Assembly: GCA_964636235.1 (NCBI GenBank)
Contig: CAZWQV010000002.1
Location: 37,607-101,606 of the forward strand
Direction of reading: 5' to 3'
Length of the DNA: 64,000 bases
Source of the DNA: an uncultured Thermoplasmatales archaeon
Lineage (GTDB): Archaea > Thermoplasmatota > E2 > DHVEG-1
The notes under the pieces are model-generated. The model saw only the letters and a program-made list of their open reading frames with translations, ran no database searches and was not told the DNA's origin. Positions 3,142-59,920 of this stretch are shown one piece after another. How positions within the stretch are numbered: position 1 is the stretch's first letter; every line of letters begins with the position of its first letter. The translations under genes and the position numbers were made by a program.

Positions 3142-3142
3142 A

Positions 3143-3248
3143 GTAACACGATATCAATGTAAAGATAGCACGAATATAAATTTTTTGTTACCAAAAGAAT
3201 TAAAAATAAAAAAACTATCTGGTGTTACTAAAATAAAATTAATGTTAC
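3143..3248. promoter_or_regulatory. Divergent nikR / ABC-transporter promoter with four copies of the hexamer TGTTAC (one inverted); candidate NikR operator
   Basis: GTAACAC at 3143-3149 is the reverse complement of GTGTTAC at 3222-3228. Further GTTAC copies sit at 3187-3191 and 3244-3248. About 0.1 copies would be expected by chance in a 120-bp AT-rich spacer. An SD aaggag lies at 3250-3255. Confidence 0.35.
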
Positions 3249-3260
3249 GAAGGAGTATTT

Positions 3261-4352: not shown

Positions 4353-4366
4353 GGATATTACCCATT

Positions 4367-6189: not shown

Positions 6190-6200
6190 GGTAATGTAAA

Positions 6201-7310: not shown

Positions 7311-7325
7311 CTATGATAATTAATA

Positions 7326-8048: not shown

Positions 8049-8054
8049 ATTTTA

Positions 8055-8828
8055 TCACCTGTTTATAATACTTGCAAAATATCCAGCACCAAAACCATTA
8101 TCAATATTTACTACAACCACACCTTCAGCACAACTATTAAGCATGGTAAGAAGTGGTGCAATACCTTTAAAACTTGCGCCGTATCCGATGCTTGTTGGAA
8201 CAGCGATTACAGGCGTTGATGTAAGACCACCGACCAAACTTGCAAGTGCTCCTTCCATACCTGCAATGACAATGATGACATTTGCATCAAATATTTTCTC
8301 TTTTATATCAAATAATCGATGAACACCTGCCACTCCGACATCATATGATTTTTCAACACAATTTCCCATGATTTCTGCTGTTACTGTTGCTTCTTCAGCA
8401 ACAGGGATATCTGATGTTCCAGCGGTAATAATGAGGATTTTACCTGGTTTTTTCTTTTTCTTTTTGTTTTCAATTACTATTGTTTTTGCCAGTTCATTAT
8501 ACTGGGCATATGGAAATTTCTTTACAACTTTTTCAAAAATAGTTTTATTTGCTTTTGTTGCAAGAATATTTTGATCTGGATCAAATGATTCAATGATTTT
8601 AATGATCTGATCTATTGTTTTTCCTTTACAAAAAATGGTTTCAGGAAATCCTTTCCGAAGTGCTCTATGGGTGTCAATTTTTACAAAATCTAAATCTTTA
8701 TATGGAAGCGTTTTTATTTTCGATAAAACCTTTTCTAAACTGATTTTCCCTTCTTTGAATTCCTGTAGTATCTTTTCCATTTTATAAAACCTCATCAAGG
8801 CTTCCAGATCGATATCCTTCGATATCAA
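8055..8828 (-). CDS. larB: LarB (PurE-like nickel-pincer nucleotide carboxylase/hydrolase)
   Basis: AIR-carboxylase-like fold motifs (IITAGTSD.PVAEEA, GVAGVHRL, VIAGMEGALAS.VGGL, GYGAS). Lies between larC and larE on the same strand. Confidence 0.75.
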   Translation of the reverse strand: MISKDIDLEALMRFYKMEKILQEFKEGKISLEKVLSKIKTLPYKDLDFVKIDTHRALRKGFPETIFCKGKTIDQIIKIIESFDPDQNILATKANKTIFEKVVKKFPYAQYNELAKTIVIENKKKKKKPGKILIITAGTSDIPVAEEATVTAEIMGNCVEKSYDVGVAGVHRLFDIKEKIFDANVIIVIAGMEGALASLVGGLTSTPVIAVPTSIGYGASFKGIAPLLTMLNSCAEGVVVVNIDNGFGAGYFASIINR

Positions 8829-9585
8829 TGGTAATATATTTGAATCCTAATTTTTTGAATGACTTAATTATATTATCAGCTGATGATAGAATTTTTTTCA
8901 TATCATCTTTTTTCACTTCTATTCGAGCTATTTCATGATGATATCTTACTCTAGATTGCTTTATTCCCAATGAATACAATACATTTTCTGCCTTTTCAAT
9001 TTGATTTAGGATATCTTCTGATATTCTAGTATTGTATGGTATTCTTGTTGCTAAACAAGGATTTGCAGGTTTGTCCCATGTTGATAAATGAAACTGTTTT
9101 GAAAGAGATCTGATGTCCTGCTTTGTTAAATTTGCTTGAACCAATGGACTTAATATCCCTAATTCTTTTAAAGCTTTTAAACCCGGGCGATACTGGTCTA
9201 AATCATCCAAGTTGCTACCCTCCAAAACTGATGAAATATTATGGGATTTGACAAAGTCTATTATTGTTGAGAACATGTATTTTTTACAATGATAACATCT
9301 ATCTGAAGGGTTTTCATAAAATCTTTTCATTTTTGTCATATCGATTTTTAATAGATGATGTGGAATTGAAAAAGAATTAGCAATTAATTTTGCTTCATTT
9401 ATTTCTTTCTTGGAATGAGCAGATGTTTGAAGAGTAACGGCAATGCAATTATTGCCAAGGACCTTCGATGTAATCTTTAATAGAAATGTACTGTCTACAC
9501 CTCCTGAAAAGGCAACTACTGCTGTTTTAAGTTTTTTAATGTTGTTTTCCAATATATCAATTTTATCTTGTAACTCTTTGTCCAC
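8782..9585 (-). CDS. larE: LarE (ATP-dependent sulfur transferase, PP-loop ATPase)
   Basis: PP-loop motif VAFSGGVDSTFLL and the conserved sacrificial-cysteine motif ANPCLATRIPY. Confidence 0.8.
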   Translation of the reverse strand: MDKELQDKIDILENNIKKLKTAVVAFSGGVDSTFLLKITSKVLGNNCIAVTLQTSAHSKKEINEAKLIANSFSIPHHLLKIDMTKMKRFYENPSDRCYHCKKYMFSTIIDFVKSHNISSVLEGSNLDDLDQYRPGLKALKELGILSPLVQANLTKQDIRSLSKQFHLSTWDKPANPCLATRIPYNTRISEDILNQIEKAENVLYSLGIKQSRVRYHHEIARIEVKKDDMKKILSSADNIIKSFKKLGFKYITIDIEGYRSGSLDEVL

Positions 9586-12737: not shown

Positions 12738-13868
12738 CTATTTTCTATAAAGCAATCGTTCATAATACTGTGAAGTTCCAGTGTTGAGTATTTCAGTTAT
12801 TATTTTTTCTGTAACCGGTCCAACACCTTTTATATTCTGCAATTCGAATTTCATTGAAGATAATGGTTGGGTGAGTTGGGAAATCTGATATGATGCGTAA
12901 CCATAAGGGGATTTTTTTCCATTTATTTTATGTAAATAATCAAGTTGATCCAAAATAACAGAAACAGTATCATTTTCGCATAGTATATTGTTAAATAAGG
13001 ATGCAGGAATTCGAATTGGGATGTGATTATTTTTCATTAACGTAATAAATGTTTCATGAATGGAATGAGTATACTCCTTTGTTGCCTGTCCCCAGGTATC
13101 ATTTTTATAGATTATCTCATAATCAGTTAAAAGATGAGGATAATGTTCTTTTAGAGTTTGATAAAAGAATTCTTTTTGTTTTCCTTTTTTTAGAGTCATT
13201 CCCCCAAAAATTACATAATCAATATCCATATCGATAAAATCTTGTATGGTTTTCTTCATACTCGTAACAGTATCGGTGATAAATGGAATCACAGGCATTA
13301 AAAATACTCCTACGGTGAATCCTTTCTTTTTTAATTTTTTCATTGTTTTTAATTTTTCACTTGGAGAAGAAGTTCCCGGTTCAAAAATTGAACAAATATC
13401 ATCATCTGTTGAACAGAAACTAAAATTTAATAATAAATTATTTTTTTCATGTACTTCAGAAAATAAATCTATATCCCGTTCAATCAGAGTTGATTTGGTA
13501 AGAATTGAAATTGGTAAATGATAATGATTAAGCAATTCAAGAGTCTTTCTGGTTAATTGATATGTTTTTTCGATTGGTTGATAACTATCTCCAACGCCTC
13601 CACCTAATAAAATATAGCATTTTTTAAATGATTTTTTCTTTTTTAACAACCGAAGTTCTTTATTAAGTACTTCAATAGCATTGATCTTAACTTCTACATC
13701 TTCTCCAAAACATCCATTAACTTGATATTTCTCAGATCTTCCATCACAATAAACACAATTATGTAAACAACCTCTATACAGATTCATGCCATAACAGGAT
13801 ATAAACCACGAATCCATTCGTTTATAAGTACGAAGAATTGATTTAGCCTTTATTTCCTTAATAGTCAT
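12738..13868 (-). CDS. Radical SAM protein, SplB/DNA-repair-photolyase-like (COG1533) with C-terminal helix-hairpin-helix
   Basis: CxxxCxxC motif CLHNCVYC near the N-terminus. The C-terminus carries an HhH-like IKGVGPVTEKII. Confidence 0.55.
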   Translation of the reverse strand: MTIKEIKAKSILRTYKRMDSWFISCYGMNLYRGCLHNCVYCDGRSEKYQVNGCFGEDVEVKINAIEVLNKELRLLKKKKSFKKCYILLGGGVGDSYQPIEKTYQLTRKTLELLNHYHLPISILTKSTLIERDIDLFSEVHEKNNLLLNFSFCSTDDDICSIFEPGTSSPSEKLKTMKKLKKKGFTVGVFLMPVIPFITDTVTSMKKTIQDFIDMDIDYVIFGGMTLKKGKQKEFFYQTLKEHYPHLLTDYEIIYKNDTWGQATKEYTHSIHETFITLMKNNHIPIRIPASLFNNILCENDTVSVILDQLDYLHKINGKKSPYGYASYQISQLTQPLSSMKFELQNIKGVGPVTEKIITEILNTGTSQYYERLLYRK

Positions 13869-34505: not shown

Positions 34506-35174
34506 ATGAAAAAGATGACCATTCAAATATCTCTTAATCCCTTTTTTTATAATTTAATAAAAAGTATAGCACCAATTGATATTATTGAAAATACAGAAGT
34601 ATTAGATATTTTAAAAATTGATTTTGAGAAAATATATAAAATCATTCTTGTGAAAATGATCATAAAACCAGGTCATACTGTTAAGGAACTGGAAGCTTCA
34701 AAAAGTGTTAAAATTCTTTCTACATTAGAAGAAGATGAACGATCAATTACATGCATAATGCAAGGTCGTCCACCAATTCATATTTTTTCAAAGCTAGGTG
34801 AAATCACCAAACATTTCGATGTTGATGTTATTTGGGATACGCCTTCAAGAATGCAAGGTCGGCATGTTGTTTTTAGTGCTATCGGATCGGAAAAAGCGCT
34901 CAATAAAATTGCTGTCTCTTGTAAATTAATTGGAAATGTTGAAAAATTAAGTTTTACTAATACTTTTTTACAGGAAATTGATTTGTTGAACTGTTTAACC
35001 GATAAACAAAAACAGATACTTGTTACCGCAAAACAAAGAGGATATTATGAGTATCCAAGGAAAATATCAACGGATATTCTTTCCAAACATGTCGGATTAA
35101 GTAAAGCAACAACGGTGGAACATTTAAGAAAAGCTGAAAATAGACTTATGTCACAATTGCTGGTTGGATATTAA
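34506..35174 (+). CDS. HTH_10 (Bat/bacterio-opsin-activator-type) DNA-binding regulator
   Basis: C-terminal motif LTDKQKQILVTAKQRGYYEYPRKIS...LSKHVGLSKATTVEHLRKAENRLM is the archaeal HTH_10 signature. Confidence 0.55.
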   Translation: MKKMTIQISLNPFFYNLIKSIAPIDIIENTEVLDILKIDFEKIYKIILVKMIIKPGHTVKELEASKSVKILSTLEEDERSITCIMQGRPPIHIFSKLGEITKHFDVDVIWDTPSRMQGRHVVFSAIGSEKALNKIAVSCKLIGNVEKLSFTNTFLQEIDLLNCLTDKQKQILVTAKQRGYYEYPRKISTDILSKHVGLSKATTVEHLRKAENRLMSQLLVGY

Positions 35175-35307
35175 AAATTAAACAATAAATACTTAATTGC
35201 CTTTTTTAATTAAAACATTTGTAATAATAATATTTAATTATTTAATTAACTATAGAAAAATATATATTCTAGTAACTATTATTAAATTACTATTGGGAGG
35301 TAGACCA

Positions 35308-35958
35308 ATGATAATGAAGGGCAAAATATTATTTTTTGTACTGCTGGTGCTGCTAAGTACTGCAATATTGCCGTTTCCTGTCATTGCTGGTGATGAGCAG
35401 AATCCTGAAATAGTAGATACAGTGGAAGATGCAAGATCGTATTTAGATATTGAAAAAGCATGGTTTTTTGAAGAAGAATCAACTCCAAATTATCTCTATA
35501 CAACCATAAAGTTACGAAATAGTAATGTGATGATGCCAAAGCAACATCTTACTGTTCATTGGAAGATGGATGATGAAATCTATTGGACCATTTGCTCAGT
35601 AGGTTATGAGGCTGGGCAATGGATACATTTTAATTTTGGCATTGGAATTGATTACTGGTATGATAGGGCAGAAGTATTTGACATTGAGGAAGAATTTGAT
35701 ACGGAATCAGGAACAGTAATATGTAAAATACCAAAATCATTATTAAATGATCCTGAACCAGGTACAATTCTAAAAGATACTTCATAAGAAGGTTTTGAAC
35801 GATTTGGCTTTTTCGGTCGATTGGGTTTCAGTCCAAAAATGAGAAGCATTCTTTTTTATAAACTTGGACTTCCAGAGTTACAAGTACAGGATTTTGCACC
35901 AAATATAATCCCTGGTGAAGAAAGAGAATATGGAAAGGATTATATTATACAATACTAG
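35308..35958 (+). pseudogene. Secreted protein, tandem-family member 1, interrupted by in-frame TAA at 35785-35787
   Basis: Signal peptide and AGDE..PEIVD motif. After the TAA the same frame continues FERFGFFGRLGF...GKDYIIQY*, matching the conserved C-terminus of members 2-4. Confidence 0.5.
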
Positions 35959-35971
35959 GGGGAATAATGAA

Positions 35972-36583
35972 ATGAAAAAATGTATATGTATTTTTGTTAT
36001 GGCGCTGTTTCTCACAACGATTTTGCCAATAACAGTAACTGCGGGTGATGAATCTGATCCAGAGATTGTTGATGGTGAAGACACGGCAGTATTTGATTAC
36101 TTGGATATTATATCTGCTTGGTTCTATGAAAAAGAAAATGAACCAGATTATCTTTATACTGCACTTAAATTAAAGGAAATCAATACGCTTAAATTTAAAC
36201 AACACCTGACTGTTCATTGGGAGCATAATGGAGTTGAATGCGCATCTTCGCTGGTGATAGGATATGGTGAACCATGGTATGCATTTATAGCAGGTTATGG
36301 TCATGGATTTTGGTTTCAAGAGCATTATGTTGAAATTGAGGGCAACTTTGATACTGAAACAGGTATTATTACCTGTAAAATCCCTAAAAGTATCATAAAT
36401 AATCCACAAATAGGTGATGTATTAACAAAAACAAAAGCACTTACCTTCCAACGGTTTGGATTTATTGGAAGATTAGGATTCGATCGTTTTTGGTTTTCAG
36501 GTTTAGTATCACTGATCACTGGAAAGGTTCCGTGGGATGGAGCACCATATGAGTATGGGAGAGATTATATTATTCAATATTAA
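35972..36583 (+). CDS. Secreted protein, tandem-family member 2 (unknown family)
   Basis: Signal peptide and AGDESDPEIVD. Conserved Y.DI...F.E....P.YLY, HLTVHW, GxITCKIPK, FQRFGFIGRLGF and C-terminal DYIIQY. Start chosen at ATG 35972. Confidence 0.5.
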   Translation: MKKCICIFVMALFLTTILPITVTAGDESDPEIVDGEDTAVFDYLDIISAWFYEKENEPDYLYTALKLKEINTLKFKQHLTVHWEHNGVECASSLVIGYGEPWYAFIAGYGHGFWFQEHYVEIEGNFDTETGIITCKIPKSIINNPQIGDVLTKTKALTFQRFGFIGRLGFDRFWFSGLVSLITGKVPWDGAPYEYGRDYIIQY

Positions 36584-36595
36584 AAGAGGGAAAAA

Positions 36596-37213
36596 ATGAA
36601 AAGAAAATTAATTGGAATATATATTGTTTTTATATTTATAAGCACAAGTATGTCAACCATGTTTGTGTTAGCTGATGAGCCAGAACCGCAAATAACTGAT
36701 CCAACTAGAGATGCATTTGGCTATATCGATATTGTGGATATTTTTTTTGAAAAACAAGAAACCCCTGAATTTCTTTGTGTATCAATGAAAATAAGTGAAC
36801 CATCTTTTTCAACATTTCAGCAAACATTTGCTGTTTTCTGGAAATATGATAAAGTTCAATATTCTTGTGGCCTTCATCTAGGATTCAGACCAAAGGATTG
36901 GGAAGCATATAATGCAGGTAAATATGAACGTGGAAAACGAAATCAGGATCTCCAAGATATCGAAGGCGACTATGATTTTGAAGATGGTGTCATTACATGG
37001 ACTATTCCAAAAGAACTTATTGGAAGTCCATCAAAAGGTGATGTATTATATGATACCTGGTCAAATGCGTTTAGACGGCTCGGTTTTATTGGAAGAATTG
37101 GTTTTACTCGCATTATCCTTGATAAAATTATCTTAAATGTATTTGATAATAACATGTGGGATTATGCGCCAGCAGAAGGAAGCTATGGTGATAATTATAC
37201 AATTCAATATTAA
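36596..37213 (+). CDS. Secreted protein, tandem-family member 3
   Basis: Signal peptide. Shares family motifs and C-terminal AFRRLGFIGRIGFTR ... DNYTIQY. Highly similar at the nucleotide level to member 4. Confidence 0.5.
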   Translation: MKRKLIGIYIVFIFISTSMSTMFVLADEPEPQITDPTRDAFGYIDIVDIFFEKQETPEFLCVSMKISEPSFSTFQQTFAVFWKYDKVQYSCGLHLGFRPKDWEAYNAGKYERGKRNQDLQDIEGDYDFEDGVITWTIPKELIGSPSKGDVLYDTWSNAFRRLGFIGRIGFTRIILDKIILNVFDNNMWDYAPAEGSYGDNYTIQY

Positions 37214-37246
37214 AAATAGTATATATGGAAAAATTGAGGTGAATAA

Positions 37247-37855
37247 ATGAGAAGAAAATTAATTGGAATATATCTGGTCTTCATATTTATAAGTTCAAGT
37301 ATGTCAACCATGTTTGTGCAAGCTGATGATCAAGAGCCACAGATCACAGATCAAACCGGTGACGCCTTTGGCTATATCGATATTGTGGATATTGAGTTTT
37401 TTGAAAAAGAGGAAGCTCCAGAATATCTTTATGTTTCAATGCAGATTAATGATCCTTCATTTACCACGTTTCAGCAAACCTTTGCTGTTTTTTGGAAACT
37501 CAATGGCACAGAATATTCATGCAGTTTACATAGGGGATTTAGTTTGAAATATTGGGATAGATACACTGCGGGAATAAGCAGAACTCGAAATCATAATGAT
37601 ATAAATGGAACGTACAATATGCAAACCGGTGTTATAACATGGAAGGTTCCAAAAGAATTCATTGGAGATCCTGAAAAAGGGGATGTTTTATATGACACCT
37701 GGTCAAACGCATTTAGAAGATTAGGGTTCATTGGAAGAATAGGTTTTACCCGCTATATCCTTGATGCAGTTATTTTGAAAGTATTTAATAATAACATGTG
37801 GGATTATGCTCCAGGAGAAGATAGTTACGGAGATAACTATATAATTAAATATTAA
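37247..37855 (+). CDS. Secreted protein, tandem-family member 4
   Basis: Near-duplicate of member 3. Followed by a T-rich terminator-like run (tcctgttttttttattctttttc around 37893). Confidence 0.5.
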   Translation: MRRKLIGIYLVFIFISSSMSTMFVQADDQEPQITDQTGDAFGYIDIVDIEFFEKEEAPEYLYVSMQINDPSFTTFQQTFAVFWKLNGTEYSCSLHRGFSLKYWDRYTAGISRTRNHNDINGTYNMQTGVITWKVPKEFIGDPEKGDVLYDTWSNAFRRLGFIGRIGFTRYILDAVILKVFNNNMWDYAPGEDSYGDNYIIKY

Positions 37856-43555: not shown

Positions 43556-45742
43556 ATGATTCGAAAAATAAGAAAAAGAGATGGAAAAATAGATGATTTC
43601 AATCCATTCCGTATAACAAATGCTATTTGGAAAGCAGCACAAGCAGTGGGTGGAAAAGATCATCGGCGTGCAACAGAGATAACTGATAGAGTTATTGAGG
43701 AGATCGAAAAAAATAAAAAACCAGGTGAAATCCCCTCTGTTGAATTAGTCCAAGATCTTGTAGAAAAGATCCTCATTGAAGGGGGGCATGCAAAAACAGC
43801 GAAAGCCTATATTCTTTATAGAAAACAACATGAAGAAATCCGTGAAATAGGTGGTTTATTAAAAGATATAGATGTTGTTGATGGATATCTATCTATGATG
43901 GATTGGAAGGTAAATGAAAACAGTAATATGAGTTACTCTCTTCAAGGATTAAATGTTTATGCTACAGAAAACATCATTTCACATTATTGGTTAAATAAGA
44001 TTTACCCACCAGAGATTGGTGACGCTCATACAAATGGTGATTTTCATATCCATGATTTAGGAACGCTAGGAGCTTATTGTGTAGGATGGGATTTACAGGA
44101 TATTCTACTAAAAGGATTTTGTGGTGTTTCTGGAAAAATAGAAAGCAATCCTGCAAAACACTTTGGAACAGCACTGATGCAAATTGTTAATTATTTGTAT
44201 ACGCTCCAGGGGGAAGCGGCGGGTGCACAAGCATTATCCAATTTTGATACCCTTCTGGCACCATTCATCCGCCATGATGATTTATCATATGAAGAAGTTA
44301 AACAAGAAATGCAGAAATTCTTGTATAATATGAACGTTCCAACTAGAGTTGGTTTTCAAAGTCCATTTACCAATATAACCATGGATTTAACCGTTCCAGA
44401 ATACATGGCAGAAGAGCCAGTTATTATTGGCGGAGAACTCATGGATACCAAGTATAAAGAATATACCAAAGAAATGAACATGATTAATGAGGCATTTGCA
44501 GAAATTATGATCGCAGGTGATGCAAAGGGAAGGCCCTTTACGTTTCCAATTCCAACCTATAATATCACCAAGGACTTTGATTGGGATACTGAAAAACTTG
44601 ACTCATTATGGGAAATGACTGCAAAGTACGGTATTCCTTACTTTAGTAATTTTATCAATAGTGATATGAAACCAGATGATGCCCGTTCTATGTGTTGCAG
44701 ACTTCGTCTTGATAACAGAGAATTACGGAAAAGAGGTGGCGGCCTGTTTGGTGCTAATCCAAAAACAGGATCCATAGGTGTTGTAACTATTAATCTACCT
44801 CGTATTGGTTATTTAGCACAAAATGAAGAGGATTTTCTCGATCGATTAGATGAAATATTGGATCTAGCCAAAGAAAGCCTTATAATAAAAAGAGAGGTCA
44901 TTGAAAATCTTACCGCAAGTGGTCTTCATCCCTATTCTAAATATTATCTTTCAGATGTAAAAGAAACCTATGGACAATACTGGAAAAATCATTTTTCAAC
45001 CATTGGAATCATTGGTATGAACGATGCCATGCTTAATTTCATGAATAAAAGTATTGCAGATCCGAAAGGAAAAGCATTTTCTGAAAAAGTAATGGATCAC
45101 ATTCGAGAAAAAATGCTAGCCTATCAAGAGGAAACAGGAGACATATTCAATTTAGAAGCAACTCCTGCAGAAGGAGCAACATATCGATTGGCACGAATTG
45201 ATAAGAAACGTTATCCTGATATACGCATGTATAATCAAGAGTTTTATCGTGGCAAAATAGGTGGAGAAATCGAACCATATTACACAAACTCAACTCAGCT
45301 ACCCGTTGGTTTTACCACTGATGTATTTAAAGCACTTGATTTACAAGATTCACTGCAAACAAAATATACTGGCGGAACGGTTCTTCATATATTTTTAGGT
45401 GAAAATAATCCAAATCCACAATCAGTCAAACAATTAGTGAAAAAAATAGCTGAAAACTATCATTTACCATACTATACCATTACTCCAACCTTTAGTATCT
45501 GTCCGGAACATGATTATATCGCTGGGGAGCATGAACTCTGCCCACTCTGTGAAAAGGATGGAAAAACCACCTCCTGTGAAGTATATTCCCGTGTTGTTGG
45601 CTATTTGCGGCCGGTTAATCAATGGAACAAAGGTAAACAAAGAGAATTTAATGATCGAACTGTTTTCACTCCATTCAATGATGAAACACTGGAATCTGGG
45701 AGAAAATTAAGCGAGGAAAAAGAAATCGTGGTTTCCACATGA
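43556..45742 (+). CDS. nrdD: anaerobic ribonucleoside-triphosphate reductase (class III) NrdD
   Basis: N-terminal ATP-cone; C-terminal Zn site C...CPLC...C; glycyl-radical motif SRVVGYLRP. Confidence 0.9.
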   Translation: MIRKIRKRDGKIDDFNPFRITNAIWKAAQAVGGKDHRRATEITDRVIEEIEKNKKPGEIPSVELVQDLVEKILIEGGHAKTAKAYILYRKQHEEIREIGGLLKDIDVVDGYLSMMDWKVNENSNMSYSLQGLNVYATENIISHYWLNKIYPPEIGDAHTNGDFHIHDLGTLGAYCVGWDLQDILLKGFCGVSGKIESNPAKHFGTALMQIVNYLYTLQGEAAGAQALSNFDTLLAPFIRHDDLSYEEVKQEMQKFLYNMNVPTRVGFQSPFTNITMDLTVPEYMAEEPVIIGGELMDTKYKEYTKEMNMINEAFAEIMIAGDAKGRPFTFPIPTYNITKDFDWDTEKLDSLWEMTAKYGIPYFSNFINSDMKPDDARSMCCRLRLDNRELRKRGGGLFGANPKTGSIGVVTINLPRIGYLAQNEEDFLDRLDEILDLAKESLIIKREVIENLTASGLHPYSKYYLSDVKETYGQYWKNHFSTIGIIGMNDAMLNFMNKSIADPKGKAFSEKVMDHIREKMLAYQEETGDIFNLEATPAEGATYRLARIDKKRYPDIRMYNQEFYRGKIGGEIEPYYTNSTQLPVGFTTDVFKALDLQDSLQTKYTGGTVLHIFLGENNPNPQSVKQLVKKIAENYHLPYYTITPTFSICPEHDYIAGEHELCPLCEKDGKTTSCEVYSRVVGYLRPVNQWNKGKQREFNDRTVFTPFNDETLESGRKLSEEKEIVVST

Positions 45743-47872: not shown

Positions 47873-48301
47873 ATGATGAAGTTGATGGTTGAACAAATTT
47901 CTTTTAAAAAAATAGACAATTGGATTATTTCTGAGATCGTTGAATTATACAAAGCAGGTGGATGGTGGAAGGAGACCTATGATCCCTCCCATCTTCCTGA
48001 CTTAATAAAAGGAAGTTTTATTTTTATTTTAGCAATTGATGATAAAACTGGAAATGCAGTTGGCATGGGAAGAGTTATTTCGGACGGTATTTCGGATGGA
48101 TACATTCAGGATGTGGTCGTATTGCCATCCTATAGAAAGAAAGGAATCGGAAAAAAAATTATCAATGAATTAATCGACTTTTGTACCGCAAAAGGAGTAA
48201 CTTGGGTTGCTCTTATCAGTGAACCTGGACAGAGTGGGTTTTATAAACCTCTTGGTTTTAACGAAATGAAACAATACGTTCCGATGAAATATGACCTGTG
48301 A
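47873..48301 (+). CDS. GNAT family N-acetyltransferase
   Basis: GNAT core (VVLPSYRKKGIGKKII). Confidence 0.6.
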   Translation: MMKLMVEQISFKKIDNWIISEIVELYKAGGWWKETYDPSHLPDLIKGSFIFILAIDDKTGNAVGMGRVISDGISDGYIQDVVVLPSYRKKGIGKKIINELIDFCTAKGVTWVALISEPGQSGFYKPLGFNEMKQYVPMKYDL

Positions 48302-48310
48302 TTTGATTTT

Positions 48311-49201
48311 ATGCTATCTATCGATGATTTTAAACCTATAACGATGCAGTCAAAACCTTTCTTTGATAGCCATTATGAAATGTATCCTCCCATTCATAGT
48401 GATAATGTTTTTACCACTCTAGTTGGTTGGCAAGATTATGCACATTATACCTATGCTCTCATTGATGATGTATTATTTATAAGAGCAACAGTAAATGATT
48501 TCAATTATTTCCGTCCCCCAAGTGGAACCTATAAAAAAGAACTATTTGATGAGTTGTTAGAACTAAATAATTCTTTACAACCACAGTCACAAATTTCAAT
48601 GATAACAGAAAATGTCAAGCAATGGATGGAAAATACATATCATTCGTATACCTTTAAACCACTTCCTGAATATGCTGACTATGTATATCGAGCAGAAGAT
48701 TTAGCTCAATTACAGGGATCTGATTATCGGAAAATTCGGAATCGATTAAATAAATTTGTAAAAAATATAACCTATAAAAAAGAAATGATAACGGAAGAAA
48801 ACATTCCAGAGGTAAAAAAATTTCTTAAAAGATGGTGTATCTGGAGAGATTGTGAAGACGATCCATTACTACAGTATGAAAAAAAAGCGATCATGTTTTC
48901 AATAGATCATTTCAAAGACCTTGGATTATCTGGAATTGCGATTAGAGTAAATGATAAGATTGAAGCAGTTTGCATGTTTGAAAAAATGAACCCTGATACC
49001 ATTGTGGTTCATTTTGAAAAAGGATCTCCATATTATGATGGGATCTATAAATTAATTAATAGAGAAACAGCAGAACTTGTCAAAAATAATGTGACCTATA
49101 TCAATCGTGAATCTGATATGGGAAATCCTGGATTACGAAAGGCTAAGGAATCCTATCGACCGGATCACATGATCAACGTGTATCAGTTAATAAAAAAATA
49201 A
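48311..49201 (+). CDS. hypothetical protein, possibly DUF2156 (lysyl-PG-synthase C-terminal-like acyltransferase fold)
   Basis: Weak resemblance only. Located directly after a GNAT gene. Confidence 0.3.
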   Translation: MLSIDDFKPITMQSKPFFDSHYEMYPPIHSDNVFTTLVGWQDYAHYTYALIDDVLFIRATVNDFNYFRPPSGTYKKELFDELLELNNSLQPQSQISMITENVKQWMENTYHSYTFKPLPEYADYVYRAEDLAQLQGSDYRKIRNRLNKFVKNITYKKEMITEENIPEVKKFLKRWCIWRDCEDDPLLQYEKKAIMFSIDHFKDLGLSGIAIRVNDKIEAVCMFEKMNPDTIVVHFEKGSPYYDGIYKLINRETAELVKNNVTYINRESDMGNPGLRKAKESYRPDHMINVYQLIKK

Positions 49202-49406
49202 AGAGATATACGTCCCTCATTTTTTTCAATTGTTTCATTAGCTTGCAATCATCCCGCCAATTAAAAATGGATATATTACAAAGCAAATAATAAATTCCTT
49301 CATAAGTAGAATATTAATTATGTATCAAAAATATTGAGATAAAATAATCATTTATTTCAATAAATAATGAACATTTTTTTCTCTTTTTGACAAAAAGATG
49401 GTTCTT

Positions 49407-49883
49407 TTAATTAAAAGTGATTGAAATCCATGTTCCGATAAGGTAAGATGCTACAATTACTAATAGAGTTAGAGAAATGTGCTCAATGATAACTTTTACA
49501 GGAGATATTTTTTGTTTTCTAGCTAAAAATATACTATTTGCAAATATAAAATAAATACTAATTATTATACTGATTATAACTGCCTTTTCAAGTGAAAATA
49601 AAAGTGTAGGGATTATGAAAAATGATGAAAAAATAAATTTACATACAAATGTCGCATACGTTGCCTCCCAAATTTCTTTTTTTGTATGGCGATTCTGAGA
49701 TTCAACAGCGGTATGCATACCAATTGAATCGGAAAGCGCATCAGCTAGAGCAATGGTTAGAATCCCTCCAATAACAATTGGTTTTGAATTAGTACTTGAA
49801 TAAAGACCTACCATCAATCCAAGTGTGGTAATAATGCCTGATGTAAGGCCAAAGTTAAATCCTGCCCGTATTGATCTCTTCAT
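49407..49883 (-). CDS. small VIT1/CCC1-like membrane protein (tentative)
   Basis: The N-terminus RAGFNFGLTSGIITTLGLMVGL resembles the VIT-family GANDGLVS helix. Four TM helices. Confidence 0.4.
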   Translation of the reverse strand: MKRSIRAGFNFGLTSGIITTLGLMVGLYSSTNSKPIVIGGILTIALADALSDSIGMHTAVESQNRHTKKEIWEATYATFVCKFIFSSFFIIPTLLFSLEKAVIISIIISIYFIFANSIFLARKQKISPVKVIIEHISLTLLVIVASYLIGTWISITFN

Positions 49884-49999: not shown

Positions 50000-50446
50000 T
50001 TATTCTAAACGCTTAATTAAAGAAAATTCTTCATTTTTAAAAATTTCAATTAATTTTAATGCGTTTTTTTTTACTATTCTTGTCATATCTCCATCCATCT
50101 TTTGTGGTTGAATTCCAATAATTGCTATTTTTGAGATATATTGAGAAAGATAATTAACAAAAACTGACAGAGGTATGCCATGAGTACTTACGTGCATTAA
50201 TCCTATTTTTTCCTTGGGAACAATCCTAATTTCACCAGGATTCAGATTCATATCAATAGCATCAATTAAATATAATATATCTGGTTTTTTTTGTTTAATA
50301 ACTCCGGTATAATTTTCAAGATACGTTTCAACATTGAGAACTTCAATATCATTTAATTTTATATTGCCTAGTTCATCAGCAATGAATGGCCCAACTGCGT
50401 CATCGCCCCCATCTCGATTACCAATACAAACAAGTAAATATTTCAA
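50000..50446 (-). CDS. hycI: [NiFe]-hydrogenase maturation endopeptidase (HycI/HyaD family)
   Basis: Motif LLVCIGNRDGGDDAVG and a 148-aa length typical of HycI. Confidence 0.7.
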   Translation of the reverse strand: MKYLLVCIGNRDGGDDAVGPFIADELGNIKLNDIEVLNVETYLENYTGVIKQKKPDILYLIDAIDMNLNPGEIRIVPKEKIGLMHVSTHGIPLSVFVNYLSQYISKIAIIGIQPQKMDGDMTRIVKKNALKLIEIFKNEEFSLIKRLE

Positions 50447-50612
50447 TGTGAAACCTCAGGAAATGTATTATGTAGAATCGCTATAAAATTTAATAATTTT
50501 CTCTAAAAAACCATCTTTTCACATTCTCGTTGTTTTCCACAACATTTTAATACTTTTTAGGATTACCAATGAACCAAATTTATTAGATATATACTACCGG
50601 AGGTACTCTTCA

Positions 50613-51047
50613 ATGTCCAAAGGACTTCCTAAAGCCTTTAAAAAAGCACTATGGGTTTATCACATAAACTCTGGATCCTGTAATGGATGTGATATTGAAA
50701 TCATTGCTGCTCTCTGTCCGAGATATGATGCAGAAAGATTTGGTATTAAACTTGTTGGATCCCCACGTCACGCAGATGTTTTACTTGTTACTGGGCCGGT
50801 TACTCGGCAATTGGTTGAAAAAGTTAAACGTGCATATGAGCAGATGCCCGATCCAAAAGCAGTTCTCTGCGTTGGGAATTGTGGTAATACCGGAGATGTG
50901 TTTTATGAAGCATATAACCTTGTTGGACCAATTGATAACGTTCTTCCTGTCGATGTTTATGTTATTGGATGTCCCCCACGACCTGAGAATATTATAATGG
51001 GTGTTGTAAAAGCCTGGACAAAACTTGAAACATTGGAGGCGAAATAA
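50613..51047 (+). CDS. group 4 [NiFe]-hydrogenase small subunit (NuoB/HycG/MbhJ-like)
   Basis: Four conserved Cys (CNGC, GNCG, GCPPRP) of the proximal [4Fe-4S] cluster. 144 aa. Confidence 0.8.
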   Translation: MSKGLPKAFKKALWVYHINSGSCNGCDIEIIAALCPRYDAERFGIKLVGSPRHADVLLVTGPVTRQLVEKVKRAYEQMPDPKAVLCVGNCGNTGDVFYEAYNLVGPIDNVLPVDVYVIGCPPRPENIIMGVVKAWTKLETLEAK

Positions 51048-51589
51048 TGGCTTCTAAAAACATTTTAACACCTGATGAAATAGTCAAATCGTTTAAAGAT
51101 GCTTTTTCAAAGGATATTATAGATGCTCGAGTGGAAAAGCATGTTAGAGGTTTGAAAAAAAATGAGTTCTTTCACATCTGGCTAAAGATTGATAAAAAGA
51201 TTTATCATGATGTGGTTGAACATCTTTTTACTTTCGAAAAACATCCTCATTTTGCCGTTTCTTCAGGATATGACCTTGGAAAAACAATTGAAATTGTACA
51301 TCATTTTTCATTGTATTCTGGCGAAAAATTAAGAGAAATTTCGATAAATATCACAACTCCTCTTCCAAAAACAGATCTTACTATTGATACGATAACTGAT
51401 CTTATTCCTGGTGCATTAATTGCAGAACAAGAAAAACAAGAAATGCTTGGAATAAAGGTCGTTGGCATTCCAAAAGATGAACGAGTATTCATCCCTAATG
51501 AGTTTCCTGAAGGAATGTATCCATGGAGAAGAGATGAAAAAAACGCTGATAAAATGGTTCGGAATTTACATGATGAGGTGAAAAAATGA
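51047..51589 (+). CDS. NuoC/HycE-N-terminal-like subunit (MbhK-like)
   Basis: 30-kDa-subunit-like fold. Translationally coupled to its neighbours (ATG overlaps the upstream stop). Confidence 0.65.
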   Translation: MASKNILTPDEIVKSFKDAFSKDIIDARVEKHVRGLKKNEFFHIWLKIDKKIYHDVVEHLFTFEKHPHFAVSSGYDLGKTIEIVHHFSLYSGEKLREISINITTPLPKTDLTIDTITDLIPGALIAEQEKQEMLGIKVVGIPKDERVFIPNEFPEGMYPWRRDEKNADKMVRNLHDEVKK

Positions 51590-52815
51590 CCACAAAAACT
51601 ATGAAAACTTCATATCAAATACCAATTGGCCCTATTCATCCAGCACTGAAGGAACCTGTGAAATTTAATTTTGAAATTGAAGGAGAAAAAATTGTTGATG
51701 TTGGGGTTGAGCTAGGACATGTTCACCGATCAATTGAATGGGCAGGAACTCGTAGGAATCCTGTTCAAATTTTATATCTTGCAGAACGTATATGTGGTAT
51801 TTGTTCCTATTGCCATCCGATGGCGTTTGCTCTCGCAAGTGAAAGAGTTGCTGGAATAGATGTTCCAGAACGTGCTCAATATCTTCGGGTTGTTCATCAA
51901 GAACTTGAACGTATCTGTTCTCATGTATTATGGGCTGGTGTTGCCGCTCATGAACTTGGCTTTGATACTGTTTTATTTTTAACATGGCAGATTCGAGAAG
52001 CTGCTCTTGATCTCACAGAATATCTCTGTGGAAACAGAGTCACAAAAGCAATCACTCAAATTGGTGGTGTCCGTAGAGACATCACAGCAGATATGCTTCC
52101 GACGATTAATAAATCATTAGATGCTGTGAAAGCGAATTGGGAGAAATTACGAAAAATATATCTTGAAGATAAAACGTTTAAACTTCGTAGTCAAGGATGC
52201 GGGGTGTTAACAAAAGAAGATGCTTTGAAACTCTGTGCTGTTGGTCCTACGACTCGTGCCTCGGGAGTAAAAAAAGATGTCCGTATTGACCAACCTTATT
52301 TTGCATTTGGTGATCTTGATTTTGATTATATGACCCCTGATATTGTAACTGGAGAAGTCAATGGTGATGTGTATGATAGAATCATTGTCCGTTTACTCGA
52401 GGTAAAACAATCAGTTGAATTGATTGAAGAAGCAATTAAAAATATGCCCGAAGGAGAGATTTTGGCAGAACCAAAAGTTGCAAAAATCCTAAATATTATG
52501 AAAAAAGCTGAAGGCGAAGGAATCGGTAGAATGGAAGCACCACGTGGAGAAGTATTTCACTATGTGAAATATGTTGGCGAACCCTCACCGTATTCATGGA
52601 AGGTTCGAGCACCAACTTATTCTAATATTTTACCTTGGATACCAATGCTGATGGGTGAACAAATCGCAGATATTCCTATTGTTGCTGCATCAACAGATCC
52701 TTGTATGAGTTGTACAAATCGCGTGGGTATAGTTGAAAAAAATCATTCATATGAATTAACTGGTGAAGATTTGCATAGAATGTGTGTGGAAAAGACAAGG
52801 AGGCTTATGAAATGA
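51586..52815 (+). CDS. group 4 [NiFe]-hydrogenase large subunit (NuoD/HycE/MbhL-like) with intact Ni-binding motifs
   Basis: N-terminal RICGICSYCH (L1: RxCGxCxxxH) and C-terminal DPCMSCTNR (L2: DPCxxCxxR). Confidence 0.85.
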   Translation: MTTKTMKTSYQIPIGPIHPALKEPVKFNFEIEGEKIVDVGVELGHVHRSIEWAGTRRNPVQILYLAERICGICSYCHPMAFALASERVAGIDVPERAQYLRVVHQELERICSHVLWAGVAAHELGFDTVLFLTWQIREAALDLTEYLCGNRVTKAITQIGGVRRDITADMLPTINKSLDAVKANWEKLRKIYLEDKTFKLRSQGCGVLTKEDALKLCAVGPTTRASGVKKDVRIDQPYFAFGDLDFDYMTPDIVTGEVNGDVYDRIIVRLLEVKQSVELIEEAIKNMPEGEILAEPKVAKILNIMKKAEGEGIGRMEAPRGEVFHYVKYVGEPSPYSWKVRAPTYSNILPWIPMLMGEQIADIPIVAASTDPCMSCTNRVGIVEKNHSYELTGEDLHRMCVEKTRRLMK

Positions 52816-53213
52816 AACTGGTCATGATACCAAAAGCATTTACTCAAATGTTTAAAAAACCATTTACCAATAAATTTCCAGCAAAATATGCACCAGGAAA
52901 TGTCAGTGGTTTTTTAAAAGCCGTTGGTGAAGGAAAAGCATCTATTAATCCACCAGTGAAAACCCCTCCGAATTTTCGAGGGAAAATAACCTATAACAAA
53001 GAAACCTGTATCGGATGCAAGCTTTGCATTAAGGTATGCCCAACAGAAGCAATTGAGTTCAAGGAAGATGAAAAGAAAATAAAAATATATCTGTCCCGTT
53101 GTTGTTTCTGTGCTCAGTGTAATGAGATTTGTCCAAAAGATTGCCTTGCAATGAGTGATGAATTTTTACTAGTGGATACTGATAAATATTCGAAGGATTT
53201 AATTGTAGAATAA
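52812..53213 (+). CDS. 2x[4Fe-4S] ferredoxin subunit (NuoI/HycF/MbhN-like)
   Basis: CIGCKLCIKVCP and CCFCAQCNEICP motifs. ATG at 52812 overlaps the large-subunit stop. Confidence 0.7.
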   Translation: MKLVMIPKAFTQMFKKPFTNKFPAKYAPGNVSGFLKAVGEGKASINPPVKTPPNFRGKITYNKETCIGCKLCIKVCPTEAIEFKEDEKKIKIYLSRCCFCAQCNEICPKDCLAMSDEFLLVDTDKYSKDLIVE

Positions 53214-53225
53214 ATCCTCATTTTT

Positions 53226-54341
53226 TTATTTATCATGTTGTAACAGCCAATTATGGATAACCGGATAAACTTCATTTTTTGCATGAATTCCTAAATTAAG
53301 ATCAAGATGACCATAATTTGCCTTGTATCCTTTATCTTTTGAAAAAAGATGATAGGTTTTATCCTTGCTTTTCACTCGGTTTACTGTTTCTTTTACATCT
53401 TCTGGTGGCGCTGCCTTATCTGCTTTTCCCGCAATGGCAAGTAAAGGATGAGTAAATCGATAAAGATATTTTTTATAATCATATGTAATGAAAAATGATG
53501 ACGTTACTGAAGTATGACCAAAAATATCATATAACCAGGGATAGCGAGGATACTTACAAAAAGTATTATGTCTAAAAAACACTGAAAAATGATTAAAAAT
53601 TTTTGATGAAATCAAATTATTCATGCCAATTTTAAGATAAAGTTCAAAGATGTCTGGTTTTATATTTTCAGGATCAACACCAAATGTTTTAAATGCAGTA
53701 TCGATTTCCGGGATCCTCTGAATAAGTTCAGATATGTTCACAGGAAAAGCAATATTTCTAGGAGCGATTCTTGTTATTAATTCAAGAAGTGGATTTTTAT
53801 ATTCAAATATTGCTGGTGATCCAATAGTAATAACTCCCTGTATAGTCCGATGAGAAGCGGGTGTCTGTCCATATGCATAGACGATCATTCCACCCATACT
53901 TTTCCCAACCCAATGAATTTTTATGTTTCTTTGCTGCTCTTTTTGATAATACGTTTGAATGAATTTCAAAATTGTTGGTATATCTTTTTCTACATAATCA
54001 TCAAAGCACCAAATGTATTTTTTAGGATGATCCTTAGGATTAAATGTAAGATTTTTTCCTCTGCCCCTTAATTGAATCACCCAAACATCATGAGATATTT
54101 TATCCTTATCATACCCTTGAGAAAGATATGCTGCCAGACTGTATTGTTCCCATTCCTTACTTTGTATATCACCAAAATCGCAACTATTTTTATTTGCAGC
54201 TAAACCATGACATAAAACAACTGGAGTACTTGTCTTTTTTTTCGTGTTTGCAGGGTAATGTAATAATTGCAGCTTCCACCCATCTGAAGTTGGCTGTGTT
54301 TTAAACGTTTGACAAAGTTCTTTTTTCATAGTATCAATCAA
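53226..54341 (-). CDS. alpha/beta hydrolase (lipase/esterase-like)
   Basis: Nucleophile elbow HWVGKSMGG (GxSxG) and alpha/beta-fold pattern. Confidence 0.55.
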   Translation of the reverse strand: MIDTMKKELCQTFKTQPTSDGWKLQLLHYPANTKKKTSTPVVLCHGLAANKNSCDFGDIQSKEWEQYSLAAYLSQGYDKDKISHDVWVIQLRGRGKNLTFNPKDHPKKYIWCFDDYVEKDIPTILKFIQTYYQKEQQRNIKIHWVGKSMGGMIVYAYGQTPASHRTIQGVITIGSPAIFEYKNPLLELITRIAPRNIAFPVNISELIQRIPEIDTAFKTFGVDPENIKPDIFELYLKIGMNNLISSKIFNHFSVFFRHNTFCKYPRYPWLYDIFGHTSVTSSFFITYDYKKYLYRFTHPLLAIAGKADKAAPPEDVKETVNRVKSKDKTYHLFSKDKGYKANYGHLDLNLGIHAKNEVYPVIHNWLLQHDK

Positions 54342-59134: not shown

Positions 59135-59920
59135 ATGATGCAATTTCTCTATCAGAGTATTCTTCCCTTTATTTTATCTGCATTAGTTGTTATTATCATC
59201 ATGTTTATTGCTGAAAGATATGGCTCAAAAGTAGGGGGCATCCTTGGAACCCTTCCATCCACTATTGTAGTAGCTTTTGTTTTTATAGCGATTACTAAAG
59301 GTGATAACTTTGCATCGGACGCAGCAGCTGTTGTTCCAGCAGAACTTGGATTTAATGTCATTTTTCTTTTTATCTTTGCTCTTCTTATTCATAGATCTAC
59401 ATTGTTTGCATTCATTTCTGCATTTACTATTTGGACGTTTTTATCTTCCCTCCTGATTCTTTTTGAAATCACTAATATTTTCATCTCATTAGGAATATAT
59501 GTTATATGCTTGGTTTCAACATTTCTCATTCTTGAACATAAAAAGAAGATCATTTCAATTGGGCAGGTAAAGGTTCATTATACCTTAAAAAAAATAGTAA
59601 CCCGGGGGATTTTAGCAGGAATTGTTATAGCAATAGCAGTTTCACTTTCAAATGTAAATAGTATTATAAGTGGCATTTTTTCTGTATTTCCTGCAATACT
59701 AACATCCACCATGGTAATTTGCGTTCGCGATCATGGCCCAAATTTTGCAGCAGGAATGGCAAAAACAATGTCCATTGGTATATCAAGTGTTGCTCTCTAT
59801 GCCACAGTCATTCATTTTTTATATCCTACCTATGGAATAGTAATTGGCTCACTGGTTGCATATCTCTTATCATTTTCTTTAACCATGATTATATTCATAA
59901 CTAGAAATAAGATTAAATAG
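59135..59920 (+). CDS. hypothetical integral membrane protein (~8 TM)
   Basis: Hydrophobic throughout; no recognisable family. Confidence 0.35.
   Translation: MMQFLYQSILPFILSALVVIIIMFIAERYGSKVGGILGTLPSTIVVAFVFIAITKGDNFASDAAAVVPAELGFNVIFLFIFALLIHRSTLFAFISAFTIWTFLSSLLILFEITNIFISLGIYVICLVSTFLILEHKKKIISIGQVKVHYTLKKIVTRGILAGIVIAIAVSLSNVNSIISGIFSVFPAILTSTMVICVRDHGPNFAAGMAKTMSIGISSVALYATVIHFLYPTYGIVIGSLVAYLLSFSLTMIIFITRNKIK

Follow-up and report, generated by a model that had tools for sequence, protein, structure and literature searches.

Gene content of the locus

In the 64 kb of archaeal DNA analysed here (the window), the open reading frames between positions 50000 and 53213 comprise four consecutive genes, mbhJ, mbhK, mbhL and mbhN, and a hycI-type gene transcribed divergently from them (Table 1). 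Family assignment with Pfam and NCBIfam profiles agreed with an earlier inspection made without database searches (the sequence-only reading), which had named NuoB-like, NuoC-like, large and NuoI-like subunits together with a divergent HycI protease, and a hydrolase and a VIT-like gene as neighbours on the opposite strand; the two neighbours proved to be an alpha/beta hydrolase gene and VIT1. The position and orientation of hycI are common to 13 related loci, and the dN/dS of this gene was 0.19-0.25.

Table 1. Coordinates of the features of the hydrogenase locus and of neighbouring genes named in the text
Feature	Position	Strand	Evidence or remark
VIT1 flanking gene	49407-49883	-	
hycI-type hydrogenase maturation endopeptidase, 148 aa	50000..50446	-	PF01750 E 9e-12; TIGR00072 76 bits, cutoff 47
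Divergent intergenic region	50447..50612	.	sequence reading
mbhJ, NuoB-like small subunit, 144 aa	50613..51047	+	PF01058 E 1e-30
mbhK, NuoC-like subunit, 180 aa	51047..51589	+	PF00329 E 5e-16
mbhL, [NiFe] large subunit, 409 aa	51586..52815	+	PF00346 E 2e-66 and PF00374
mbhN, NuoI-like 2x[4Fe-4S] subunit, 133 aa	52812..53213	+	NF006221 145 bits, cutoff 124
T-rich tract TCATTTTTTTATTTAT directly 3' of the mbhN stop	53214..53232	+	sequence reading
Alpha/beta hydrolase flanking gene	53226-54341	-	convergent with mbhN, end at 53226
DUF3147	59135-59920		in relatives, syntenic with mbhJKLN

The translation start of mbhN is most likely the ATG at position 52812, which overlaps the mbhL stop codon as in all relatives (where the protein always has 133 aa), and not the GTG at 52782 chosen by the ORF finder. 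The N-terminal stretch of MbhN, MKLVMIPKAFTQMFKKPFTNKFP, is kept, and this segment also aligns with chain N of the Pyrococcus furiosus enzyme (6cfw_N). An A/T-rich, TATA-like stretch, TTATTAGATATATA, lies about 20 nt before the mbhJ ATG and is a putative promoter of this gene; the motif GGAGGT is found 7 nt upstream of the same ATG. At the other end of the gene run, the T-rich tract that follows mbhN likely acts as an archaeal oligo-T terminator. Family annotation of the open reading frames revealed no hyp genes in the 64 kb window; hypE and hypF flank mbhJKLN in most relatives, and the sublineage of the window lacks both at this place. The 64 kb window holds neither an rRNA gene nor a marker set.

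All metal-binding motifs of the J, K, L and N proteins of the window are intact. In MbhL these are RICGICS (C70 and C73) and DPCMSCTNR (C373 and C376), the two Ni-binding CxxC motifs already described as intact by the sequence-only reading; the four cysteines and E23 align with C68/C71, C374/C377 and E21 of P. furiosus MbhL. The window protein extends 30 residues beyond R379 (...CTNR379), the equivalent in the alignment of the arginine at which the mature P. furiosus MbhL chain ends, and this tail is presumed to be the substrate of HycI. Thus, a C-terminal extension after the L2 motif and an adjoining endopeptidase gene, as in HycI-type maturation, are both present.

Classification of the hydrogenase

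The closest PDB matches of the four proteins were chains J, K, L and N of the P. furiosus Mbh complex (6CFW). The E-values of the top matches of MbhJ and MbhK were 5e-58 (6cfw_J) and 1e-18 (6cfw_K), 6cfw_N was the top match of MbhN, and MbhL scored 1e-104 against 6cfw_L, compared with 3e-66 for HycE and 3e-40 for MbsL. In a neighbor-joining tree of 90 large subunits, built from distances alone and with neither bootstrap values nor HydDB reference sequences, the window MbhL fell in a single Thermoplasmatota clade holding every locus of the split type. Complete loci of this clade all read J-K-L-N and lack an mbhM gene between the last two. The clade branches within an assemblage of contiguous A-I,J,K,L,M,N clusters that also includes P. 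furiosus MbhL, i.e. inside the Mrp-linked group 4d. The NiFe ligands of L1 and L2, the catalytic glutamate, a NuoB-like small subunit bearing a single [4Fe-4S] cluster and the NuoC- and NuoI-like subunits, all features of group 4d, were found in the window. The large-subunit classification proposed as a check by the sequence-only reading therefore gives, from the tree and the PDB scores, a group 4d enzyme of the Mrp-linked Mbh clade. An enzyme of the Ech or FHL type was rejected, as the PDB scores favor MbhL and the tree position differs, and a soluble group 3 hydrogenase was rejected on the basis of the Complex1_49kDa architecture.

The P. furiosus Mbh has 14 subunits encoded by contiguous mbhA-N genes, and its MbhL is 46% identical to that of the window; the two enzymes share E21, the four NiFe cysteines and the [4Fe-4S] motifs. 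In contrast to P. furiosus, the split clade lacks mbhM between L and N and its two arms are unlinked, about 20 residues are inserted in the window MbhN, and the N-terminus of the window MbhJ is shorter, the latter being also the case in contiguous relatives. In other Thermoplasmatota and in bacteria, contiguous Mbh clusters (L018-L058) contain the same 14 subunit families in the classical A-I,J,K,L,M,N order in one cluster, and are sister groups in the tree; their MbhL proteins are 45-64% identical to the window MbhL, with 57-64% for the nearest of the clusters listed, which belong to Thermoplasmatota, Atribacterota and Verrucomicrobiota. The E. coli Hyc (group 4a, PDB 7Z0S) and Ech-type (group 4e) enzymes share with the window a NuoB/C/D/I-like core and HycI-type processing. 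They are, however, more distant, as seen in the HycE score given above and in the position of an Ech-like locus (L079) elsewhere in the tree; furthermore, the window lacks a formate dehydrogenase partner, and the type of membrane arm differs.

A split Mbh has been known since 2022, when mbhJKLN and a separate mbhABCDEFGHIM cluster were described in Subgroup E of the Thermoprofundales (MBG-D) (PMC9585477, Mol Biol Evol 2022). The window shares with that system the contiguous mbhJKLN genes, the lack of mbhM between L and N and the lack of adjoining membrane genes; both are of group 4d and come from Thermoplasmatota MAGs, and the loci that we recovered independently reproduce both halves. The locus is thus not a new kind of enzyme but one more species-level case of the published arrangement. 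The view of the sequence-only reading that group-4 operons always include membrane genes is out of date in the light of that report, and the window MbhL falls in a clade with remote membrane genes, putatively that of Thermoprofundales Subgroup E (PMC9585477), the placement which that reading had itself named as speaking against its proposal. Among the matches listed, the MAGs with the closest homologues bear the names Thermoplasmatota, Thermoplasmatales or Thermoplasmata archaeon. Thermoprofundales corresponds to the GTDB class E2, and the window organism is putatively of the Thermoprofundales/MBG-D Subgroup E type. Because no protein in a collection of 5.8 billion sequences exceeds 89% identity to its MbhL, we assign it to a further species-level member of the split-MBH group.

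The membrane arm

Inspection of all open reading frames of the 64 kb window with at least two predicted transmembrane helices revealed no NuoH, NuoL or Mrp-type gene, which extends to the whole window the earlier remark that no membrane subunit genes adjoin the locus; the window stops 10.8 kb beyond mbhN, and the membrane arm is known from relatives, not from the window genome. By Pfam, the larger multi-helix frames encode MatE, FecCD, DUF3147, MscS (two), CNNM, CorA and VIT1 proteins, and most of the other large frames were annotated, with no hydrogenase or Mrp subunit among them.

The search for orphan membrane genes suggested by the sequence-only reading was run in relatives and led to an operon of ten genes (mbhA-I plus mbhM) that occurs without mbhJKLN on several contigs, and in which 6cfw_I and 6cfw_M are the top matches of the two final genes. 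On the JGI contig Ga0374082_0962687 (126,343 bp), mbhJKLN occupies roughly 37.5-40.1 kb and, on the same strand, mbhA-M occupies roughly 98.2-103.7 kb, so that the membrane arm is 58 kb downstream; the genes upstream of mbhJKLN on this contig (DUF123, CutA1, ThiI, NrdR, NrdD, NrdG, TrxB and HycI) are syntenic with those of the window. In MAG GCA_016932245.1, mbhJKLN is on JAFGDG010000003.1 and mbhH-I-M on JAFGDG010000049.1. A third layout was found in locus L015, where mbhJKLN is followed about 200 nt later by mbhA-I and mbhM on the same strand. Among the best 120 MbhL and MbhM matches listed, the 126,343-bp contig was the only one in common, and there was none for the mbhJKLN contigs of 560, 307, 266 and 200 kb, a result that has no bearing on the absence of the arm. 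Of the three options left by the sequence-only reading for the missing membrane subunits, a remotely encoded arm is what we found in relatives, either 58 kb away or on another contig of the MAG.

The genes of both halves are well conserved. In the genes of the locus dN/dS was 0.03-0.2, with synonymous sites near saturation, and in mbhJ it was 0.03-0.05. The split clade kept 210 of the 235 positions of J, K, L and N that are conserved across contiguous Mbh enzymes, including 53 of 60 in MbhJ and 26 of 27 in MbhN. On the remote arm, the anchor MbhM (dN/dS 0.06, with 78 of 82 universally conserved positions kept) and the linker MbhI are under strong purifying selection and retain nearly all universal residues, and the per-subunit identity profile of split genomes agrees with that of contiguous genomes of similar divergence. 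These tests cover whole proteins and not interface residues; they show no relaxed constraint and do not by themselves prove docking.

Discussion

The locus encodes the cytoplasmic MbhJ-K-L-N arm of a group 4d Mbh, and our data suggest that the two gene sets probably build one 14-subunit ion-pumping complex in trans. According to this proposal, the ancestral 14-gene mbhA-N operon would have been broken in two, with mbhM relocated behind mbhI and mbhJKLN turned into a separate transcription unit, and the ten membrane genes (mbhA-I and mbhM) would lie tens of kb away, outside the window. After Ni-Fe insertion, HycI would cut the 30-residue C-terminal tail of MbhL. Electrons from reduced ferredoxin would then pass through MbhN and MbhJ to the NiFe site in MbhL, where protons would be converted to H2, while MbhJ and MbhL would be seated on the anchor MbhM and H+ or Na+ would be translocated via MbhH and the Mrp-like subunits. 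Ferredoxin-dependent H2 evolution with ion translocation is predicted here by homology to the P. furiosus Mbh, and we also infer that the window genome carries the remote arm and that the two halves come together, as well as the direction in which catalysis and ion pumping run.

A different interpretation was put forward in the report on Subgroup E, where MbhJKLN would be an autonomous, soluble, non-energy-conserving ferredoxin:proton hydrogenase and the products of mbhA-I and mbhM an independent Na+/H+ antiporter (PMC9585477). In that study, transcripts of the peripheral arm were much more abundant than membrane-arm transcripts, the membrane arm alone conferred Na+ tolerance to E. coli (antiporter complementation), and recombinant MbhL evolved H2; transcript levels and Na+ tolerance were read as a sign of halves that work independently. 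The layout of the window is consistent with this interpretation, since mbhJKLN is self-contained, preceded by an upstream region of its own and followed by a T-rich tract, and modules of hycI and mbhJKLN without mbhM are also present in one Bathyarchaeia MAG and one Thermoproteales MAG. A cytoplasmic subcomplex, MbhJKL, engineered from the P. furiosus enzyme reportedly shows catalytic activity with artificial dyes, which also fits a soluble enzyme. Nevertheless, it is MbhM that anchors the peripheral arm to the membrane, and Mrp antiporters have no equivalent of it (PMC8165549); an antiporter would have no known use for this NuoH-like subunit, yet both MbhM and MbhI are kept. In addition, the constraint on J, K, L and N is unrelaxed, the two blocks adjoin on one strand in L015, and unequal levels of operon mRNA are no proof of independent proteins. 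We therefore regard the separation into two autonomous systems as unlikely, and the soluble option of the sequence-only reading, against which the retained anchor counts, stays at a lower weight. We consider it improbable that MbhJKLN acts, for at least some of the time, as a group-4 hydrogenase that is free in the cytoplasm and not coupled to ion pumping.

In a sister lineage, an intact mbhL gene stands alone among genes for rubrerythrin, superoxide reductase, flavodiiron protein and peroxiredoxin. This gene context hints at a possible recruitment of the module, or of some of its parts, to redox or oxidative-stress functions.

It is also conceivable that mbhJKLN encodes a differently anchored variant that docks on a membrane partner other than the MbhM arm, given that the window has several membrane proteins of unclear role, and that one of them, the DUF3147 protein, is syntenic in relatives. 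We consider this very doubtful, because a NuoH-like or complex-I-type partner near mbhJKLN was found in none of the 18 other split loci, and a bona fide MbhM co-occurs with mbhJKLN in the same genomes. Finally, it is hardly credible that the membrane genes were lost through misassembly, or that the locus is a decaying, pseudogenized remnant. Although mbhN is followed by only about 2 kb of sequence on the contigs of the closest relatives (L001-L003), with an IS200-type transposase gene at that place in L002, the motifs are intact and dN/dS is low. Nor is the layout an assembly artefact, because 18 other contigs, which derive from several assemblers and sources and in some cases have 10 kb of flanking sequence on either side, show the same J-K-L-N block lacking M.

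Assembly in trans is the reading that we favor because the anchor MbhM is retained, constraint is unrelaxed, a variant with adjacent mbhJKLN and mbhA-M exists, and orphan mbhL genes are present in the genomes CAZFFN01 and CAZWYI01. Such lone mbhL genes occur in L009 and L010, and since an intact mbhL is found entirely alone in these loci, their lineage appears to need assembly from separately encoded subunits.

In summary, the question raised by this locus is whether an Mbh encoded by two unlinked operons is one energy-conserving complex or whether its catalytic head has been freed. The published claim of independent function (PMC9585477) rests on indirect evidence, and the comparative data presented here argue for assembly in trans. 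The answer affects models of H2 production and energy conservation in very abundant sediment archaea, as well as the view of complex I as a product of modular evolution; should MbhJKLN be free, it would represent a soluble group-4 enzyme occurring in nature and a present-day counterpart of the hydrogenase module proposed as ancestral.

Gene content of the mbhJKLN unit

Family profiles identified, in a region of about 31-34% G+C, the gene set that the sequence-only reading had proposed, with hycI on the minus strand and four subunit genes on the plus strand. The four ORFs are tightly packed, with start/stop overlaps at 51047 (mbhJ/mbhK), 51586-51589 (mbhK/mbhL) and 52812-52815 (mbhL/mbhN). Translation of mbhN most likely begins at the ATG at 52812 rather than at the GTG at 52782, giving the 133-aa length shared by every relative. 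The mbhJ ATG is preceded by GGAGGT (7 nt before) and a TATA-like stretch (about 20 nt before), and an oligo-T tract lies 3' of the mbhN stop, as does the end of the convergent hydrolase gene; because of these signals and the gene overlaps, mbhJKLN looks like a self-contained transcription unit.

Hydrogenase genes of the window
Gene	Product	Position	Strand	Profile
hycI	HycI-type maturation protease, 148 aa	50000-50446	-	PF01750; TIGR00072 superfamily above cutoff
mbhJ	NuoB-like small subunit	50613-51047	+	PF01058, E 1e-30
mbhK	NuoC-like subunit	51047-51589	+	PF00329
mbhL	Large subunit	51586-52815	+	PF00346 and N-terminal part of PF00374
mbhN	NuoI-like two-cluster ferredoxin subunit, 133 aa	from ATG 52812	+	NF006221 above cutoff

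In an alignment with P. furiosus MbhL, the catalytic Glu (E23, equivalent to E21) and the four NiFe cysteines (C70, C73, C373 and C376) of the window protein are all conserved, bearing out the earlier description of both Ni-binding CxxC motifs as intact. A 30-residue tail extends past R379; since the mature chain in the P. furiosus Mbh structure (6CFW) stops at the equivalent Arg, the tail fits processing by HycI. MbhJ has four cysteines at the proximal cluster ligand positions (alignment with 6CFW chain J), and MbhN has two CxxCxxCxxxCP motifs and the conserved N-terminal segment.

Genes for a GNAT protein, an LPG-synthase C-domain protein and VIT1 lie upstream of the hydrogenase genes (47873-49883), and an alpha/beta hydrolase gene lies downstream of mbhJKLN (53226-54341), as in the closest relatives (loci L001-L003). 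The contigs of these three all end about 2 kb past mbhN, probably because a repeat breaks the assemblies there, as L002 carries an IS200-type (Y1_Tnp) transposase gene (12975-13433) near its contig end. No hyp genes were found in the 64-kb window. Most relatives have hypE between hycI and mbhJ (compared in L004, L005, L008 and L098), several have hypF directly 3' of mbhN, and some have hypC and hypD within 7 kb. The anaerobic ribonucleotide reductase NrdD, encoded upstream of mbhJKLN, contains an intein in L098 (1875-4907; 1010 aa vs 728 aa in the window, 43556-45742).

Elsewhere in the window, a nickel-related neighbourhood (2728-9585) encodes NikR, a periplasmic-binding-protein/FecCD/ABC-ATPase transporter, a TrmO_N-FmdE fusion protein and LarC-like (240 aa, with a match limited to the first 235 of 375 profile positions), LarB-like (AIRC) and LarE-like (PP-loop) proteins, a content indicative of nickel-pincer cofactor synthesis. 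Five ORFs of about 200 aa each follow one another on one strand at 34506-37855, the first with a C-terminal HTH_10 domain and the remaining four without a Pfam match.

Classification of the hydrogenase

For each protein the best solved-structure match was the corresponding 6CFW chain (L, 1e-104; J, 5e-58; N, 1e-24; K, 1e-18), HycE (3e-66) and MbsL (3e-40) being clearly more distant from MbhL. The closest proteins among 5.8 billion were 77-89% identical to the window MbhL, and the named ones among the matches listed all came from Thermoplasmatota MAGs. Species-representative genomes gave at least 80 loci (39-79% identity), in which all 14 Mbh subunit families were labelled with phmmer. In a neighbour-joining distance tree of 90 large subunits, without support values and read for its coarse result only, every J-K-L-N locus without M fell in one clade (the window, L001-L008, L011-L014, L016, L017 and L098), together with L015 and two loci with an orphan mbhL. 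About 40 clusters with the gene order A-I,J,K,L,M,N, the classical one, surround this nested split clade; they come from other Thermoplasmatota, Atribacterota, Verrucomicrobiota, Dehalococcoidia and others. P. furiosus MbhL belongs to the same larger group. By sequence comparison, the window enzyme is classified as Mrp-linked group 4d.

Complete Mbh clusters with an MbhL 55-62% identical to the archaeal one were found in MAGs labelled Atribacterota, Verrucomicrobiota, Lentisphaerae, Planctomycetes (Phycisphaeraceae), Dehalococcoidia and Proteobacteria (L019, L022-L035, L041, L043, L051 and L063). As such bacterial-labelled clusters are interleaved with Thermoplasmatota in the tree, this suggests that the whole cluster passed between domains.

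An analysis of 146 Thermoprofundales (MBG-D) genomes (Mol Biol Evol, 2022) placed their MbhL in group 4d and described, in Subgroup E only, an MBH cluster in which MbhJKLN (peripheral arm) is encoded apart from MbhABCDEFGHIM (membrane arm); in the authors' view the two function independently (PMC9585477). The window is a further instance of this already known arrangement; its MbhL groups with enzymes whose remote membrane genes are published, an outcome that the sequence-only reading had itself named as refuting its proposal. Two more distant group-4 loci (MbhL identity 44-45%) also carry hycI and J-K-L-N without a NuoH-like gene: L062 (9074-11499; Bathyarchaeia MAG, 298 kb contig, with 10 kb of sequence to either side) and L069 (5392-8359; Thermoproteales MAG). 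Because of these loci, M-less four-gene modules are not unique to Subgroup E, contrary to PMC9585477, which modestly qualifies that claim. L062 also has putative hypF, D, E, A and B, for which size and position were the only basis of assignment.

Location of the membrane arm

Every window ORF with at least two predicted TM helices was listed, the larger ones were identified by Pfam (MatE, FecCD, DUF3147, two MscS, CNNM, CorA and VIT1), and most other large ORFs were annotated too. None of the TM and other large ORFs of the 64-kb window was a NuoH-, NuoL/MrpD- or Mrp-type gene, so the reported lack of adjacent membrane subunit genes holds across the window. The window ends 10.8 kb past mbhN, and a membrane arm at the distance seen in relatives would lie outside it.

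In the split-clade locus L015 (JADBLO010000059.1, about 8.9-17.3 kb; MbhL 73% identity), a six-frame reading gave J, K, L and N followed, after about 200 nt on the same strand, by A, B, C, D, E, F, G, H, I and M. This layout is an intermediate or, alternatively, a re-joined state; it shows that the move of mbhM to behind mbhI was independent of the blocks becoming physically separated. A homologue search seeded with the L015 MbhM returned thousands of matches, whose gene contexts were inspected. They revealed a ten-gene operon (MNHE, MrpF, PhaG, MbhD, MbhE, MnhB, Oxidored_q2, Proton_antipo_M, a 111-122 aa protein and NADHdh), the last two genes of which best matched 6cfw_I and 6cfw_M. Its neighbours are thyX/ribD_C at one end and genes for archaeosortase, PS decarboxylase and CDP-alcohol transferase at the other; some loci have about 31-32% G+C, as in the window, and no mbhJKLN was found near it in the contexts inspected.

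An MbhL 81% identical to that of the window (P0019) and an MbhM (P0266) are both encoded on JGI contig Ga0374082_0962687 (126,343 bp), with mbhJKLN at about 37.5-40.1 kb and mbhA-M at about 98.2-103.7 kb, 58 kb apart on the same strand. The genes upstream of its mbhJKLN (DUF123, CutA1, ThiI, NrdR, NrdD, NrdG, TrxB and HycI) follow the window order, and for this reason we consider the two loci orthologous. In MAG GCA_016932245.1, mbhJKLN lies on JAFGDG010000003.1 and mbhH-I-M on JAFGDG010000049.1. The shared contig and the shared MAG imply that both arms belong to one genome, and we infer a membrane arm in the window's own genome. Among the options first raised for the module (soluble, differently anchored, or served by a remote membrane arm), the last is the one seen in these relatives.

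One complex or two independent halves

We think it likely that the split genes encode, in trans, a single 14-subunit, ferredoxin-oxidising, H2-evolving and ion-translocating complex. MbhM is the anchor carrying MbhJ and MbhL and has no counterpart in Mrp antiporters, and MbhI preserves the interface at which the anchored arm meets the ion-translocating module (PMC8165549). Both are kept at the end of the remote operon (dN/dS 0.06 for M and 0.11 for I), where MbhM retains 78/82 and MbhI 11/13 of the positions whose conservation among contiguous Mbh enzymes is at least 90%. Identities between two split genomes (M 74%, I 59%, J 84%, L 77%) gave a profile much like that of contiguous pairs at similar divergence (70/70/85/76 and 71/63/87/83). 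MbhJ, K, L and N are also constrained (dN/dS 0.03-0.2), keeping 53/60, 14/20, 117/128 and 26/27 universally conserved positions, respectively, although such tests concern whole proteins, not interface residues, and do not settle assembly.

In the tree, the window's sublineage has as its sister group two loci with an intact mbhL (L009, CAZFFN010000151.1, 10004-11257; L010, CAZWYI010000018.1, 9992-11224). This mbhL is 77-79% identical to that of the window and keeps every NiFe motif as well as the C-terminal tail, and no mbhJ, K or N was found near it. As a large subunit requires a small subunit, this lineage presumably builds its enzyme from subunits encoded apart from one another. N-terminal sequences, together with Pfam calls for the syntenic block of L098, indicate that the orphan gene lies within an oxidative-stress cluster: upstream are a Fur/PerR-like regulator, flavin reductase, flavodiiron protein, peroxiredoxin, ferritin, hemerythrin-like protein and two rubrerythrins, and downstream a desulfoferrodoxin-like protein and SufC.

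That the two arms are instead independent machines seems to us rather improbable. Unequal transcript levels of the arms, the ability of the membrane arm alone to rescue a Na+-sensitive E. coli strain and dye-linked H2 evolution by a recombinant MbhL fusion (PMC9585477) speak for autonomy, yet none of them demonstrates failed assembly in the native cell, and a pure antiporter has no known need for the MbhM and MbhI retained here. We favour the single complex because of this retention, the constraint on J, K, L and N, the adjacency of both blocks in L015 and the orphan mbhL.
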